64,000 bases of DNA from positions 4,526,001 to 4,590,000 of the forward strand of contig OZ336876.1 in assembly GCA_965287045.1 (NCBI GenBank), read 5' to 3'. The stretch comes from Carcharhinus amblyrhynchos (taxonomy: Eukaryota). The position numbers are program-made. Positions within the stretch are counted from its first letter, which is position 1, and each line of letters starts with the position of its first letter. Below are positions 6,001-21,000 of the stretch, one piece after another.

Positions 6001-9000
6001 ACTACAGCACAATACAGGCCCTTCGACCCACAACTTGGTGCTGAACACGTCCCTACCTTAGAGATTACTAGGTTGACCGAAAATCCTCTATCTTACTAAG
6101 TTCCATGTACTTATCCAAAAGTCTCTTAAAAGACCCTATCGAATCCGCCTCCATCACCGTTGCCGACAGCCCATTCCACGCAGCCACCACTCTCTGAGTG
6201 AAAAACTTACCCCTGACATCTCCTCTGTATCTGCTCCCCAGCACCTTAAACTTGAGCCCTCTTGTGGCAGCCATTTCAGCACTAGGAAAAAAAACCTCTG
6301 ACTATCCACTCGATCAATACCTCTGAACGTCTTATACACCCCTATCAGGTCACCACTCAATTGCAGAGTCTGAATAGGTATCATTTCCTATAACTGTTGT
6401 AAGAGCTTTGAAGGATTTGTGTCAGTTGGAGTTTCTGAATTTAGTTTGGTTGGGGGGAGGGGCACCTTGGTGTTCAGGCAATTTGTGGGTAAATGCCACT
6501 TTCTGTATCTCTTTTGACTGGAATGTTTGTACCAATTGTTGTGCTTGCATGGACCTGTTGAGTTTGTTGGAGAGTCTGTGTCAGTTGGAGTGTACGTAAT
6601 AGCTCTGGCAGTTTTATCATCTTACAGGTACAGTGGCCTAATTTTGATACTGGTTAAAAGGAGTGATTTGTTTAAAGTGTTATGATACATTGAATACTGT
6701 TTGGTTTAGTTTGAAGAGAATTAATGTATTGACACCCAAAAGCTATTTAGATTTGAATTAATGCAGACGATGTATTTGTTTTAATTTCCAATATATGTTC
6801 AGAAATATCCTAGTTTAATCACTCGCGCATATGTCCACAGTAAAGACAGAAGTTAGATGTCGGAGTATAATAGTACGTCCCTGAGCAAAATACTTCAACA
6901 TTTTACATTGAATTAGAGAATGATCACACTCGATGGAAAGGCAAGGCTGAAACGGTATGAGACATAGAGATGACAGTGACTGTGCTTAAGGGACAGCCTA
7001 CTTGCTTTCAGAATGCAGCATCTATCTTATTTGCTAATTAATGTGCTCAGATTTACCAGTCTCCATCAGTGAACTCGATGTCGTCATATGCTTACTCAAT
7101 TAAAATCAAATACAGATTAACAATATTGCACCATCAACATCTCAAGGCGATCCACCAGTTATAAATTAAAACCTTTGGGCATCCGGTACCTCAGAGTTTA
7201 GTATAGAGAAACTATAAGCGGTAAGAAAGTACTGATCACTTCACCCAGGAAAATGATGGAAACATTTGAAATGATCGCCAAAATATTCTACCTAATTTTG
7301 GCTGTAATTGGTGTTCCTGGTAAGTGATTATAGCCATTGCATATGTGTAAATTTGTTTATGCGATTTTTTTTCTGGTTTTACTATGAGTCATATTTTTAC
7401 ATGCTGACCCCTTAGGTTCCTATATCCAGAAATCTAGGTCAATATATTTTGCTTCAGCTCGTTAATCACAGGCTTCCTGAATTTTAATTGCATTTTAGCG
7501 GAATATGCTCGAATGTTGAATCAGATCGCAGTGAAAGTAAGCTCTCTGAAGCAATGTATTGACGGGAATCAGATTAAAATCACGGGATGTCCCTGCACAG
7601 TGCAACATAACTGGCACCAGAGACGCGATACTACTGAGAACATATGCCAATGTGGAATTGCACTGAGTGTGGGTAACTGACCAGAATCTACAATTTCAAT
7701 CAGTTGTGCGTCTCCTTCTACAGAAAGTTACTGAGTGTAGGTCACTGATGGAAATAAATAGGCGAGTTCTGCTATGAAATAATACATTTCCTTGTTGCAT
7801 ACATAGTGTATTCCACGGCATGATTTCTAAATTATGCCAAGAGTATCGAGATAAAACCTGAAGTTATATTCTATTACAAAAAAACAGAAAATGCAGTATA
7901 ATCTCAGTAGGTCTCATGAAATCTATGGAGAGAGAACAGAGCTTAGGTCTTGAGTCTGGACGGTGCTTCATCATAGCTGAAGACAATAGAAAATAGGAGA
8001 TTTTTATTATTGTGTTGAAGATACGGGGGGTTATGAGTGCTAAAAGAGGACCAGCTGTCGATGGCAGAGATATTGAAAAATCTGCCATGGACAAAAAAAA
8101 GGAAAGGGAATGTAAATGCTGATGAGCATGGTTAAGAAAGCTGCTGATAGCGGTCATTAAGAAAACAGAATGTGCCAATGCCAGGACAAATGTAATCCGA
8201 GTGGGAAATGTCAATCTTAAGTAGCTAACGGCTGGCCCGATTGGAGTGGTTGGGGGTAGTGGGGGAGAGGGGTGAGGGGGGCGGAGGGTGTAGAGGTTAA
8301 ATAACTGTGGGGGGAAAATGTGTAAGCGAGGATTAAATAAAAATAATTGTTAAAAAACGGAAGAATGAAAATAAATTCAATAACAAATAAATCAAATGTA
8401 ACTAAGTATGAGAAATTGATGGAAATGGAATGAAGGTGGAGGATAGAACTAATGGCCTGAAGTTTTTGAACTCAATGTTAAGTCTGCAAGGTTGCAATTC
8501 CTAATCCGGAGATCAGATGCTGTTTCACGAGTTGGCAATTTGATTTACTGGATCATTGCAACAGCCCAAGGACGGACATGTTGAGAAGAGAATATGATGG
8601 TGCTTTTTTTTATTGGCAAGTGGCACATATATTCTGTTCATTGAGGAAGACAGTTCGTGTGTAACTTGACATGTCTCCATATATTTGTGCATTTTATTCA
8701 ATTGCTTCAGCAGAAACTGTCATGATCTACTTCCTGACATTTATGCAAATTTAAAGCTGTCTTGAAATCCTTTTTCTTTTGTTTTAAATTTCTCTTCCAA
8801 TCCTCAGGAAATTAACTCTTGTTCATTGCTTGGAATGTTATGCTCCTTTAGAACAAGTGATTCTGCTTTCAGTATTTTTCGTGTATGTTCTCCAGAACTT
8901 TAAAAATCTGTGACCCCAATTGATACTTTGTTTGCAGGAATTATTCCGGGAATATATTGTTCGGGGCAAACTATGGTGCTTAGCTTTGAGTTGTGTTGAG

Positions 9001-18000: not shown

Positions 18001-21000
18001 AAGGAAGTCTATGATTTTACTCTTCAGTATATCTGGCGCCTTTATAATTTTATGGTCAATGAATGTTATATTTTTCTTGTATAAACAAATTAGAGGAGCA
18101 GTTTATTTAACCGATTCTGAGACGATATATCAATATACTGGATGGATGATGCGAAATTTAAATTGCTGCACAAATACGTTTATTTATGGAGTGACACAGT
18201 CCAAGTTCAGAGAGCAGGTGAAGATCGTGGTAAAATATCCGGTAACATCAATTATTCAGTTCATCAATAAACAAAAATTCTAAGGGGATTTCAGAGCGGA
18301 CAGTGAGTTATTTCGGGGCACGTATCCAATGTTCATTATGAACGCAGAATGCACACATTGAAGATTAAAGAGCAGAAGAGCAGTGAACCCTTATGCAACG
18401 ATGTTGGGTTGGATTAGTGGATGACACGTCGACCTCCACTGCGCCAATTCTCATTCATCGAGGGCTATCCGCCGACAACCTCCTCCTTCTTCAATCGGGG
18501 AGCACCGTTCAGCTGAACGAGGGATCATGCTATTGAATGTGATGACCAACCATAATGGAATGGAAATGCAGCGTTTGCTCGAAGATTCAAATAGCCTTCC
18601 CCTCTGTCGATTTTCTATGTTTCTATGACTTTTTGGCATCTGATCCAATACGAACCACCGCCTGCTGATCATGCGTTGGTCAGCCAATCAGCGTTCTTAA
18701 ACAGTGACCGACAGCTACATTCACCAATGAAAGAGCTCTGCCTGCAAACTGCCATATCCCACCAGCTAATTCTGGAGATTCAGTCAGCAGGAAGCAATCA
18801 GGCAAGCAAAGATTTGAGAGCGCGATCTGTCTCACAGCTGCATTCAGCCATCAAGATGTGCTGCTGTCTGCTGATTGACAGTATGTGCAGGCAACCTGCG
18901 ACCGTCGGCTGTCTGTCGTTGTTTCACTCATGACAACCATTTAATCTTCTCATTTTGTATGGCTGTCTTCAATCCTCCCCACTCAGAAGGACAAGTTCGA
19001 TCTTATTCTGGACCCGACTTAAATTTATACCATTTATTTGGTACTTCAATTGATTTTATTGCTATTAAATAAATCGCTTCTCACTTCTCTGCACTGAAAT
19101 TTATCTTGCACCTGTAAACTGGTTACATTTAATTTGCATATGTCTGAAAACTTAATCTGTCATCACCATGGTTCACAACAGAATCAGATTTTAGTTCCTT
19201 ATCATGATCCATTCAGAATTACATGCACCTTTTCCCTCAAGAACAATACACAGACGCAGTACAAACGCAGTACGCAGGCCCAGTACAAATCTGTGGTTGT
19301 ATACGCTATATATGTGTTTCCATGGCCATTTCATAATACGCAGTAACCATATCCCTCTGTGCATAGGCTATTATGTTCTAAATGTAAACTTTCGAGATAA
19401 TTCATTCTGACCTAACATTGGCTGCTATGGGACATAACCTGTCAGCAAATTGCTCACCATTCTCCTCTATAATATATACATTTCATTCAGATTGCCCATT
19501 CCTTCGAACTCAGACTCTCATCATAGCCCTTTTATCCCAGGGACCAGATAAAGAGCGAAGCTGCATCATCTTAAAGGTATGAAAATATTCAGTTTGAGAG
19601 ACGGACAAAATTGCATGCAGACTTGACTTGTGCTTTGATGAAGTCGACTGACAACTGGGGGTTTCGAACTATTAGTTTTCATTCGCTCGACAACACATGT
19701 TTTTGAAACAGTTCGGGCACAAGTTACCCAGTTATCACATTTCTGTGAGTTGCACATTTTGACCACTCACTGGATACATTCATTCTTGGAGAATGGCCTG
19801 TTGAATTTTGATATTTGGTGATTGTCATATATTACCGTCTCTACTAGTGGTCTTAATGGCTGCTCTGTCCGAACTAATCATAATGTCAAGTAGATTTATT
19901 AGAACCCCAGTTATACCCTCTATGTGAAACAATTTGTTTCCTACACATAGTCAAATTCTATGTGAAAAACTCACTCATATTAGCACAGATGCATCTGGAT
20001 GTGCCATGTGTCCTTATTTCTGGTTCAGCCCCTCTAGGCAAGTTTAAATTGGGGTCAATGCCAAGTATTACAAACAATACCAAATTCTGGCCACTCAGGC
20101 TTCTCTAATCAGGAAATCACACCATTTTTGTTCTCGCACCATAGCCCAAATGCTGTGTTTATCAGTGACAGGAGTGATCTTTGATCGCCAAGCAGTGCGT
20201 AGCTTGTGTATTGTACACACAGATTTGGAACTGAAGTGTTGGGAAACGTCATGGAATGCTTTGTTACAGAATATAACCTTTTCTTTTCAAGACCCTCAGA
20301 CACAATGGGAACTTATCACTGGTCAGTTATGCTTTTCTGCTGAATATTCCATCAAATGATATCCAACTAGGCTGAGCGTTGCTGGCTACAGCTCAGGTAG
20401 CCCATCGCAGACAATAGTGTTCAGCCACACTACATTACACACAACTGCGTCAGATTAGCCATTTTTTAAAGCATGGCTCTGAATAGTATCCAGCTGTTCC
20501 TGAATGTGTTGGCCAAATTAGAGACTCAGTAAAATAAATCCATCATGCATTGTTGCAATGAAAAACATTCAGCAAGTAAATTCCATGAGGCCAGAAGCCC
20601 TTGAGGGATCCTTGGATAATACAGCCTTTGGAAAAGGTGTGGGTACCATGAGGGAGAAGTGAATTAATTAGGAAAGTTTTTTAAAAAAGGAGGCACTGGC
20701 ATTGGAAAATAATGAGATAGTGGGCCAGACTGGATTCAGGACTTTATGAGTTTAGTGGAAGCGACGTCTCTGGATTAATGAGGGTGTTGGGGTAAAAATT
20801 AAGACTGTGACCTTTGAATGCTGACACGTGCATAACTGCAGGACCAGCTGCACCCAGAACTTATCCTGTGGTTAACAAAGATCAATCAGTTGCTGACTAA
20901 ATAGCAAACTAACCTTTGAGCTACATCCTGTTATTGTATAAAAATGTGGAACAGACAAAAAAAATCAGAACACGAGGTCCAGATGGTCAGCTTAGCTGAA

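Follow-up and report, generated by a model that had tools for sequence, protein, structure and literature searches.

Results

An intact two-exon receptor gene

Sequence analysis of the 64-kb window (the whole stretch of DNA analysed, free of N) confirms an intact two-exon gene at 7253..18283, predicted to encode a G-protein-coupled receptor (GPCR) of class A with about 323 residues. Coding exon 1 (7253..7319, forward strand, 67 bp) holds the start codon and the N-terminus, which is short, as well as TM1's outer half, and comprises 22 codons plus one base (phase 1). No in-frame ATG lies between an in-frame TAG at 7199-7201 and its start codon at 7253, its donor is a consensus site (CCTG/GTAAGT), and reading through without splicing leads to a TGA after two codons. 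A 10,059-bp GT...AG intron (7320..17378, forward strand) separates it from coding exon 2 (17379..18283, forward strand), ahead of which a long pyrimidine run and TTACAG, ending at 17378, form a consensus acceptor. Exon 2 starts at N1.50 of TM1, continues with TM2-TM7, helix 8 and the C-terminus, and closes with a TAA stop at 18281-18283. The phase-1 join creates an Ala codon (G+CT); with 22 residues from exon 1 and 300 full codons from exon 2 the product would be 323 aa, an arithmetic sum, the exons having been searched separately and not as a joined protein. About 7-10 residues precede TM1 in the predicted protein. A preliminary description of this DNA had proposed the hidden 67-bp first exon 10,059 bp upstream, its phase and the 323-aa product, all of which are borne out by the sequence and by N-terminal homology. 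Its 298-codon open reading frame needs a small correction: between stops the frame counts 307 codons, of which 300 and the split codon are exonic. Two long open reading frames inside the intron gave no Pfam match. The region around the gene is rich in LINE fragments.

That exon 1 is real is confirmed by homology. When the N-termini of homologues were searched against the window, exon 1 was the best match for 14 of 18, with E values down to 1.8e-7, and the best match elsewhere reached E 0.068 only. The exon-1 peptide is identical to residues 1-22 of the basking-shark homologue P0053 at 15 of 22 positions (E 2e-8). For 4 of 20 homologue models (P0012, P0047, P0066 and P0034) the N-terminal likeness ends exactly at the exon junction, as expected from mispredicted first exons at a shared intron. 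We infer transcription and splicing of the gene from its homology with the gene models of other species.

Searched on its own, exon 2 matched the Pfam 7tm_1 profile (PF00001) at E 5.2e-19 and 69.2 bits (cut-off 30.5) over profile positions 2-260 of 260. Its translation (P0001) carries GKCGLSTC, TPVC, DRF, WLCY and NTFIY; all of these motifs, and the short N-terminus, had been read correctly in the preliminary description. The hallmark residues N1, D30, R84, W225, C59 and C138, corresponding to N1.50, D2.50, R3.50, W6.48 and the TM3-ECL2 disulfide cysteines, are all present, and in an alignment of 68 sequences N1 is nearly invariant and the other five are invariant. Class A receptors often have the CWxP and NPxxY motifs but need not. 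Here P6.50 and P7.50 are both absent, TM6 reading W-S-M-N and TM7 N-T-F-I-Y, where the family consensus is W-L-V-Y and N-T-F-I-Y. Exon 2 is predicted to hold six and a half helices, TM1 being completed by exon 1; a low-confidence model places helices at 15-47, 56-92, 100-124, 148-191, 202-238, 245-272 and 274-299. This AF2 model is poor (pLDDT 63.9, pTM 0.49), and a fold search with it gave TM scores of ~0.6 throughout class A, with GPR139 at rank 26 and no discrimination within the class. The best fold matches of this low-confidence model were peptide and chemokine receptors (C3aR, CXCR3, TRHR, GALR and GPR15), and its ECL2 is predicted as a β-hairpin.

The exon-2 frame matched the family HMM at E 7.7e-165. 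It departs from the family at 6 of the 138 columns that are ≥90% conserved, five of the six departures being conservative. Homologues depart at a median of 4 of these columns and at six or more in 43 of 120 cases, so the receptor lies within the normal range of family members.

A dead copy downstream

In tandem and in the same orientation, ~9 kb downstream, lies a pseudogene copy of exon 2 (27199..27958, forward strand), with 38% identity to the intact gene over residues 23-256 (tblastn) and a DNA similarity of 66-70% that is confined to coding sequence. Its HMM matches fall into pieces in three different frames covering profile positions 20-277 of 325, with TM7 and the tail missing. It contains in-frame stops, its acceptor reads ...TTACAA, and no exon 1 was found for it when homologue N-termini were searched against the window. 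The tandem paralogue announced earlier is this pseudogene.

An expanded elasmobranch family

A search with the exon-2 protein returned at least 2000 proteins at E≤1e-3. The 120 matches listed are all 54-73% identical to it; 114 of them cover 99-100% of exon 2, and the whole set 95-100%. Every one of the 119 that have a name comes from an elasmobranch. By hand count of these 120 matches, 62 belong to Heterodontus francisci, so that this shark has at least 62 distinct copies; 28 name a single 74.5-Mb Heterodontus contig. With clustering at 50% identity, E≤1e-3 is attained by 508 clusters and E≤1e-30 by 111; a further subfamily, at 40% identity, is elasmobranch too. Annotation pipelines name members 'probable/putative GPR139' in 20 elasmobranch species, and others FMRFamide receptor-like, neuromedin-U receptor 2-like or capa receptor-like; one ray protein (P0332) is auto-named GPR142. 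Models of the first kind (P0006 from Cetorhinus maximus, P0012 from Scyliorhinus torazame and P0009 from Heterodontus francisci) have the same N-terminal exon peptide and the same invariant Cys, DRF, ICL3 and CCTNTFIY motifs, and the window copy nests among them. It differs in its own set of pocket residues and in that none of the matches listed exceeds 73% identity to it; the exact gene or species is apparently outside the protein set.

In a quick tree search, with SH-aLRT support only and long outgroup branches of unknown origin, the window gene falls in a 60-row clade (SH-aLRT 90) whose other rows are 55 named elasmobranch ones and 4 of unknown origin, and within it inside supported clades of 9, 26 and 31 rows. 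Four clades with support ≥96 contain both sharks and batoids. The 60-row clade is sister to amphibians plus a sturgeon (support 100; union 99). Full-length similarity to the listed matches and this nested position support membership of a large lineage-expanded shark-and-ray 'probable GPR139' family, in line with the expansion first suspected. We found no description of this expansion in the literature, and the available sections of PMC11979771 and PMC10116579 do not mention such a family. The earlier label 'uncharacterised' fits the papers, in which the family is apparently unstudied, but not the databases, whose annotation pipelines already know it by name.

The sister group comprises 20 amphibian species and a sturgeon, each with a single listed protein. 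Its members named 'probable GPR139' (P0250 from Pleurodeles, P0383 from Xenopus tropicalis and P0399 from Acipenser) are 27-34% identical to members of the elasmobranch family and share its TM1 motif and a DPEM-x-RR-(K/R)-S motif before TM6. They differ in a near-invariant pocket with GPR139-like F3.33, P6.50, K6.51 and an Asn matching N271. A profile of this group likewise finds its nearest characterised receptor in GPR139. As a GPR139 orthologue it was rejected (53 bits).

Relation to GPR139

Compared with solved receptors, the family profile matched GPR139 best (E 3.9e-15, 59 bits), followed by the peptide receptors GHSR (E 1e-8), PrRPR and CCKBR. The single sequence scored 25.4 bits against GPR139 (E 8.1e-5), below GPR21, GPER1 and GPR52; GPR139 stands out with the family profile only. 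The kinship proposed in the preliminary description stands for the family and not for the single sequence. At this level the receptor appears to belong to the wider GPR139-related branch of class A, with GPR139 as its nearest characterised relative. GPR142 is a close homologue of GPR139 and an aromatic amino-acid sensor of pancreas and gut. The two belong to the same small branch, according to the available part of PMC7318219.

The receptor and GPR139 (7VUG, 7VUH, 7VUI, 7VUJ and 9M42) have in common a TM1 G-x-P-A-N motif (GLPAN in GPR139, GVP/AN across the splice site in the shark gene), DR(Y/F), W6.48 and a TM7 N-x-x-x-Y without Pro7.50. GPR139, too, has two exons, and its first one initially escaped notice, as the same portion of PMC7318219 relates. 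There are also differences: GPR139 keeps P6.50, which the shark receptor does not; the shark receptor has the TM3-ECL2 Cys pair, whereas GPR139 has no TM3 Cys, as stated in the preliminary description; and the shark ICL3 motif SDPEMESRRKS aligns to a gap in GPR139. Identity to human GPR139 is ~20% over 287 columns of a structural alignment (7vui_R), compared with the 70% given in that source for true GPR139 between human and zebrafish. GPR139 is described there as highly conserved across species, whereas the shark family consists of many divergent copies.

The text available from PMC5430874 gives the GPR139 ligand residues as F109(3x33), H187(5x43), W241(6x48), R244(6x51) and N271(7x38), with E108(3x32) nearby. 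In the profile alignment these correspond to S67, E157, W225, N228, W255 and L66, so one of the six is kept, the generic W6.48. With the GPR139 ligand residues lost, the suggestion of aromatic amino-acid sensing is unsupported for the 7253..18283 copy; the view that it is too diverged to be the GPR139 orthologue agrees with these values.

A variable pocket above a fixed cytoplasmic face

Among elasmobranch paralogues, a set in which paralogues are mixed with orthologues, mean variability was 1.30 bits on the extracellular side (132 positions) and 0.59 bits on the cytoplasmic side (168 positions; p 2e-14). Extracellular variability is common in GPCR families. At the 26 positions that we take to form the pocket, using a canonical position list and a generic numbering that was fitted by motif and leaves helix bulges out of account, the mean was 1.61 bits, against 0.68 at 163 other TM positions (p 4.5e-6). 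The most variable sites were 3.29, 3.32, 3.33, 3.28, 2.61, 7.39 and 7.35, with the two residues after the ECL2 Cys. Conversely, almost nothing changes across paralogues on the cytoplasmic face, in ICL1, DRF/ICL2 and the ICL3 motif. As a control, 20 amphibian orthologues (78% mean identity) gave a pocket-to-other-TM ratio of 0.35, whereas five 20-sequence samples of elasmobranch paralogues (69-72% identity) gave 2.1-2.5. The combination of a variable pocket and a fixed cytoplasmic face suggests many ligands feeding into one signalling route. The pocket of the window copy is polar and charged (K3.28, R3.36, D3.37, E5.42, R5.43, N6.51, Q7.35, R7.42 and N7.43).

Discussion

On balance we favour the reading that the locus holds a working two-exon GPCR gene, one copy of an expanded shark-and-ray family with the design of a chemosensory-type repertoire. 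Two features of such repertoires were found: a pocket hypervariable among paralogues above a conserved signalling face, a pattern that is reversed in the amphibian orthologues, and a large multigene family with genomic clusters and pseudogenes, here an intact and a dead copy 9 kb apart. A GPR139-like ancestor, of which amphibians and a sturgeon retain one listed gene in each species, multiplied in sharks and rays by repeated DNA-level duplication, tandem or segmental. Each copy may then have come to bind a different ligand while all share one transducer, and the pocket of the window copy would suit small water-soluble or peptide ligands.

The database names suggest a shark orthologue of GPR139 (or GPR142) acting as a brain or gut aromatic amino-acid sensor, and the first rank of GPR139 among solved matches of the family profile, the common TM1 and TM7 motifs and the two-exon structure agree with it. 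Yet the single sequence scores lower against GPR139 than against GPR21, GPER1 and GPR52, identity is 20% against the 70% of true orthologues (PMC7318219, in the part available), W6.48 alone of the six ligand residues is kept, a TM3 Cys is present in the family and missing from GPR139, and one species has at least 62 distinct copies; we regard orthology as highly improbable. It is very unlikely that the window copy is silent or decaying, its open frame a trace of recent history and its exon 1 a relic no longer spliced. The neighbour 9 kb away is dead, the intron is 10 kb long and LINE fragments fill the region, but neither exon is interrupted, the consensus is matched at the start codon, donor and acceptor alike, and the departures from conserved columns (six of 138, five conservative) are normal for the family.

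Other readings accept the expansion and give it a different role. Neuropeptide or neuromodulator receptors that serve nervous or endocrine functions and were amplified in elasmobranchs together with their ligands would recall GPR139, itself described as a brain receptor in the portion of the literature available; the FMRFamide, neuromedin-U and capa receptor-like names and the fixed pocket of the single-copy amphibian relative, as for one conserved ligand, point the same way. Dozens to hundreds of paralogues with hypervariable pockets would however need equally many endogenous ligands, tandem pseudogenes point to fast gene turnover, and we know of no such matching ligand family, which makes this role quite unlikely. 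An immune or peptide-sensing repertoire, comparable with chemokine, formyl-peptide or MRGPR-type receptors and acting in leukocytes or epithelia rather than sensory neurons, is also unlikely. Fast-evolving immune receptors do combine variable pockets with a fixed signalling face, the profile matches after GPR139 are peptide receptors, and the modelled ECL2 hairpin and fold matches to peptide and chemokine receptors would fit; the model behind that fold search, however, is of low confidence, and the search separates no groups within class A. Chemokine receptors use a long N-terminus, and that of the shark receptor, at ~10 residues, is very short.

Sharks have a famous sense of smell. Sharks and rays have been reported to possess only a handful of OR, TAAR and V1R genes. 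Beyond the favoured reading of a chemosensory-type repertoire, we raise as a tentative and somewhat doubtful possibility that the GPR139-like expansion is a seventh, unrecognised vertebrate chemoreceptor family, an ancestral amino-acid or peptide receptor having been re-tuned, with the window gene as one working receptor. In the available sections of PMC11979771, the 50 most abundant and specific genes of a catshark 'brain & olfactory epithelium' library include no GPCRs, and thus give no positive sign of olfactory expression. The TAARs of teleosts and the TAAR-like receptors of lampreys treated there offer an analogy of design only, a class A receptor multiplied in one lineage; we do not claim the shark family as a member.

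What has been stressed for cartilaginous fishes, in the parts available of PMC8455134, PMC11979771 and PMC10116579, is a scarcity of GPCRs and very small sets of olfactory receptors. One shark with at least 62 copies, and a family spread over 20 elasmobranch species, are at odds with that picture, and the pocket-centred variation makes the family a candidate for chemical sensing in the nose, mouth, skin or immune system. Set beside the single-copy amphibian and sturgeon relative with its GPR139-like pocket, it would form a before-and-after pair for the passage from a one-ligand receptor to a repertoire, a comparison that may help to de-orphanise the GPR139 branch.

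A two-exon receptor gene

The gene lies on the forward strand of the window and comprises exon 1 (7253-7319), an intron of 10,059 bp (7320-17378) and exon 2 (17379-18283), both exons falling exactly where the preliminary description had placed them. In the window sequence an in-frame TAG at 7199-7201 precedes the frame of exon 1 and the next ATG is that at 7253. The exon spans 22 codons plus one base and ends CCTG|GTAAGT at 7319/7320; read without splicing, its frame reaches a stop two codons past the donor. The acceptor, a long pyrimidine run followed by TTACAG, ends at 17378, and the codon split by the junction, G+CT, encodes Ala. 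Exon 2 then runs for 300 full codons from 17379 to a TAA at 18281-18283. The reported 298-codon ORF was thus slightly off, as the stop-to-stop frame has 307 codons, 300 of which are full exonic codons, whereas the total of 323 amino acids holds by arithmetic from the separate exons. The GKCGLSTC, TPVC, DRF, WLCY and NTFIY motifs described earlier were all recovered from the exon-2 translation, and the window contains no N. Transcription and the splice junction are predicted from this gene model.

Exon 1 and exon 2 were used as separate queries in every search (peptides P0002 and P0001, respectively). Alone, exon 2 matched the whole of the Pfam 7tm_1 profile with an E-value of 5.2e-19, and a hidden Markov model (HMM) built from 68 sequences of the family with an E-value of 7.7e-165. 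Exon 2 lacks an in-frame Met ahead of TM2, which calls for an upstream exon. We took N-termini from 20 homologue models and kept the 18 in which the junction is preceded by 15 or more residues, leaving out P0047 and P0066 as too short. In a six-frame search of the window, 14 of the 18 found their best match at 7250-7318 in the correct frame, with E-values down to 1.8e-7, and the strongest match elsewhere was at 0.068; the four without a best match at exon 1 were P0012, P0014, P0034 and P0121. Residues 1-22 of the exon-1 peptide also align to the start of a basking-shark protein, with 15 of 22 identical. Together with the N-terminus search, this alignment backs the hidden first exon that had been proposed. 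In four of the 20 models (P0012, P0047, P0066 and P0034) the N-terminal likeness to the other models breaks off exactly at the junction, which is the pattern that mispredicted first exons at a common intron would give.

At 138 columns conserved in at least 90% of the family, the exon-2 protein deviates at six, five of these changes being conservative. The family median at the same columns is four deviations, and 43 of 120 members deviate at six or more. Because these deviations are few and within the family range, the gene looks intact.

A decayed tandem copy and neighbouring repeats

The tandem paralogue noted previously is present on the same strand, about 9 kb downstream (~27199-27958), with 38% identity to the exon-2 protein, but it is dead and not a working gene. 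Its matches to the family HMM come in pieces, in three different frames and interrupted by stops; they cover profile positions 20-277 of 325, with TM7 and the tail absent, and the acceptor position reads TTACAA. No exon 1 for this pseudogene was found between 18.3 and 27.2 kb. DNA similarity between gene and pseudogene is 66-70% and confined to coding sequence; a search for common intron or flanking DNA found none outside it, and the duplication is therefore old. The family HMM found no copies in the 64-kb window besides these two.

Fragments of one RVT_1-bearing non-LTR (LINE-type) retrotransposon family abound in the window, at 1-459 (reverse strand), 24304-25113 (forward), 30832-33014 (reverse) and 45415-46620 (reverse). 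Three of the four score above the Pfam RVT_1 cut-off and none is complete. The fragments at 24304 and 45418 are 95% identical at the protein level, which suggests that the family was fairly recently active. Two long stop-to-stop ORFs within the intron, one of 161 codons on the reverse strand (7864-8349) and one of 197 codons on the forward strand (12570-13163), gave no Pfam match and are probably decayed repeat sequence.

A large elasmobranch family

A word-indexed protein search with exon 2 returned at least 2000 proteins at E≤1e-3. The 120 best matches listed share 54-73% identity over 95-100% of exon 2, 114 of them covering 99-100%, and all 119 that are named come from sharks, rays or skates. 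The name is probable or putative GPR139 for 116 of these, capa receptor-like for two and GPR15-like for the remaining one. By hand count, 62 of the 120 rows belong to Heterodontus francisci, and 28 of these name the same 74.5-Mb contig; a single species thus accounts for at least 62 distinct copies, many of which share a chromosome-scale sequence. The matches listed in this search and in one for the subfamily of P0182, a cluster representative with 40% identity that marks another elasmobranch subfamily, cover 20 species of sharks, rays and skates and include no chimaeras. The earlier suggestion of a lineage-expanded receptor family is borne out by these counts.

An exhaustive HMMER search of cluster representatives returned 508 clusters at E≤1e-3, 111 of them at E≤1e-30, beyond which similarity drops to full-length proteins of 23-28% identity. 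A protein atlas search yielded the automatic name and nothing further. Several database models (P0003, P0004, P0017, P0021, P0078, P0100 and others) reach 380-516 amino acids through extra N-terminal sequence, and in P0100 a DDE_Tnp_4 transposase domain (PF13359) is present as well. These N-termini are probably annotation artefacts in which the receptor exon has been fused to adjacent transposon ORFs, and database protein counts and lengths for the family consequently need curation.

Relation to GPR139 and to an amphibian and sturgeon group

In a single-sequence search of solved structures, exon 2 matched GPR139 with an E-value of 8.1e-5, but GPR21, GPER1 and GPR52 scored higher, so that a single sequence cannot place the family and a profile is needed. 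The 68-sequence family profile matched GPR139 at 3.9e-15 (59 bits), ahead of the ghrelin receptor at 1e-8. An AlphaFold2 (AF2) model of exon 2 built with the family alignment was poor (pLDDT 63.9, pTM 0.49) and was used solely for helix boundaries and for the identity to GPR139 of about 20%, taken from the fold-search alignment. The best matches of that search were class A peptide and chemokine receptors, with TM-scores of ~0.6, and GPR139 ranked 26th.

GPR139 and the family have in common G-x-P-A-N in TM1, DR(Y/F), W6.48 and a TM7 N-x-x-x-Y that lacks the proline. In contrast, the family has an invariant TM3-ECL2 Cys pair, whereas the aligned stretch of GPR139 contains no TM3 Cys, as the preliminary description had stated; P6.50 is kept in GPR139 and absent from the family, and the family motif SDPEMESRRKS in the third cytoplasmic loop (ICL3) aligns to a gap. 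A mutagenesis study names F109, H187, W241 and N271 as key agonist residues of GPR139, with R244 and E108 nearby (PMC5430874). In the window copy the first four sites are occupied by S, E, W and W and the remaining two by N and L, so that only the generic toggle tryptophan is retained. Human and zebrafish GPR139 are described as 70% identical, and the gene as having two exons, the first initially missed (PMC7318219). We therefore reject the window copy as a GPR139 orthologue and regard it as a relative, in agreement with the preliminary description: identity is about 20% here against 70% between the human and zebrafish orthologues, and one of six pocket residues is kept.

A search with the cluster representative P0250, a newt (Pleurodeles) protein with 28% identity to exon 2, listed a single relative from each of 20 amphibian species, with 66-74% identity to the newt homologue, and a protein from the sterlet Acipenser ruthenus (P0399) with 46% identity to it. 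Among the 25 proteins found with P0250, none was from an amniote or teleost. The members of this group (P0250, P0380-P0399) are auto-named 'probable GPR139', and their pocket is nearly invariant and GPR139-like, with F3.33, P6.50, K6.51 and an Asn matching N271. The amphibian protein scores 53 bits to human GPR139 and was rejected as its orthologue. The group has the appearance of a third, as yet unnamed, member of the GPR139/GPR142 branch.

We computed a quick maximum-likelihood tree of 72 rows, in which support values are SH-aLRT only, the outgroup branches are long and ten rows have no assigned organism, four inside the 60-row clade described here and six outside; bona fide GPR139 and GPR142 were not among the rows. 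Organism was unassigned for P0245, P0257, P0260, P0255, P0266, P0268, P0269, P0175, P0189, P0195 and P0196. The window copy, 55 named elasmobranch rows and the four unassigned rows form one 60-row clade (support 90), whose sister is the amphibian and sturgeon group (support 100; union 99). Four well-supported clades contain sharks and batoids together, and several gene lineages thus predate the shark-batoid split. The window copy itself sits in a shark-only clade of nine rows (support 95), nested in one of 31 (support 100). The next relatives outside both groups, P0245, P0257 and P0260, have G-I-P-S-N as a similar TM1 motif and N-M-Y-L-Y in TM7.

Variability of the pocket and the cytoplasmic face

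Column entropy was calculated from the 120 best matches aligned to exon 2, with generic positions set from the motif anchors N1.50, D2.50, R3.50, P4.60 (assumed), P5.50, W6.48 and N7.49; the helices so delimited match those in the secondary structure of the otherwise poor AF2 model. The extracellular half with its loops averages 1.30 bits (132 positions), compared with 0.59 for the cytoplasmic half, loops and tail (168 positions; p = 2e-14). At 26 positions taken as the canonical class A pocket, entropy averages 1.61 bits, against 0.68 at the 163 other TM positions (p = 4.5e-6). Variability is highest of all at 3.29, 3.32, 3.33, 3.28, 2.61, 7.39, 7.35 and the two residues after the ECL2 Cys. 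As a control, the same measure on 20 amphibian orthologues (mean identity 78%) gave 0.16 bits in the pocket and 0.47 at other helix positions, a ratio of 0.35, whereas in five sets of 20 sequences drawn at random from the elasmobranch matches (69-72% identity) the ratio lay between 2.1 and 2.5. Judged from these alignments, the family is one in which the cytoplasmic face is conserved and the pocket diversified.

Mean entropy is 0.30 bits in ICL1, 0.42 in ICL2 and 0.64 in ICL3. The third cytoplasmic loop of GPCRs is normally variable. Here it holds a motif, N-x-S-D-P-E-M-E-S-R-R-K-S (17973-18011; exon-2 residues ~198-210), that is near-invariant across the family; the amphibian group and distant subfamilies have a related form, D-P-E-M-x-R-R-(K/R)-S. 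The motif may serve a common partner as a docking or phosphorylation site. Conserved Cys residues also mark the cytoplasmic or lower-TM side of exon 2: C13 and C18 of ICL1 (17411-17434) are invariant, the first Cys of the CC after DRFVAI (17645-17650) is near-invariant, and so are both in the CC directly before NTFIY (18164-18169).

Discussion

The gene model is that of a spliced two-exon class A receptor, a member of a very large, clustered family. The copies of this family would recognise different ligands and signal through a single shared transducer, and for that reason the family may act as a sensor repertoire. In the window copy the pocket is polar and charged (K3.28, R3.36, D3.37, E5.42, R5.43, N6.51, Q7.35, R7.42 and N7.43), which would suit water-soluble small molecules or peptides. 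Our first choice is a putative chemosensory use, and immune or neural peptide sensing are live rivals. The chemosensory reading gains no support for olfactory expression from a catshark survey, which reports no GPCRs among the top 50 genes, by abundance and specificity, of a 'brain & olfactory epithelium' library (PMC11979771), although receptor genes are seldom among the most abundant transcripts.

Gene models of the family are already public under an automatic and misleading name. We found no paper describing a GPR139-like expansion in cartilaginous fishes, in a search that had supplementary tables and subscription journals outside its scope. Papers on these fishes describe instead a paucity of GPCRs and very small olfactory receptor families (PMC8455134, PMC11979771, PMC10116579). 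What is reported here is a GPR139-branch class A receptor that has been turned into a lineage-specific repertoire.
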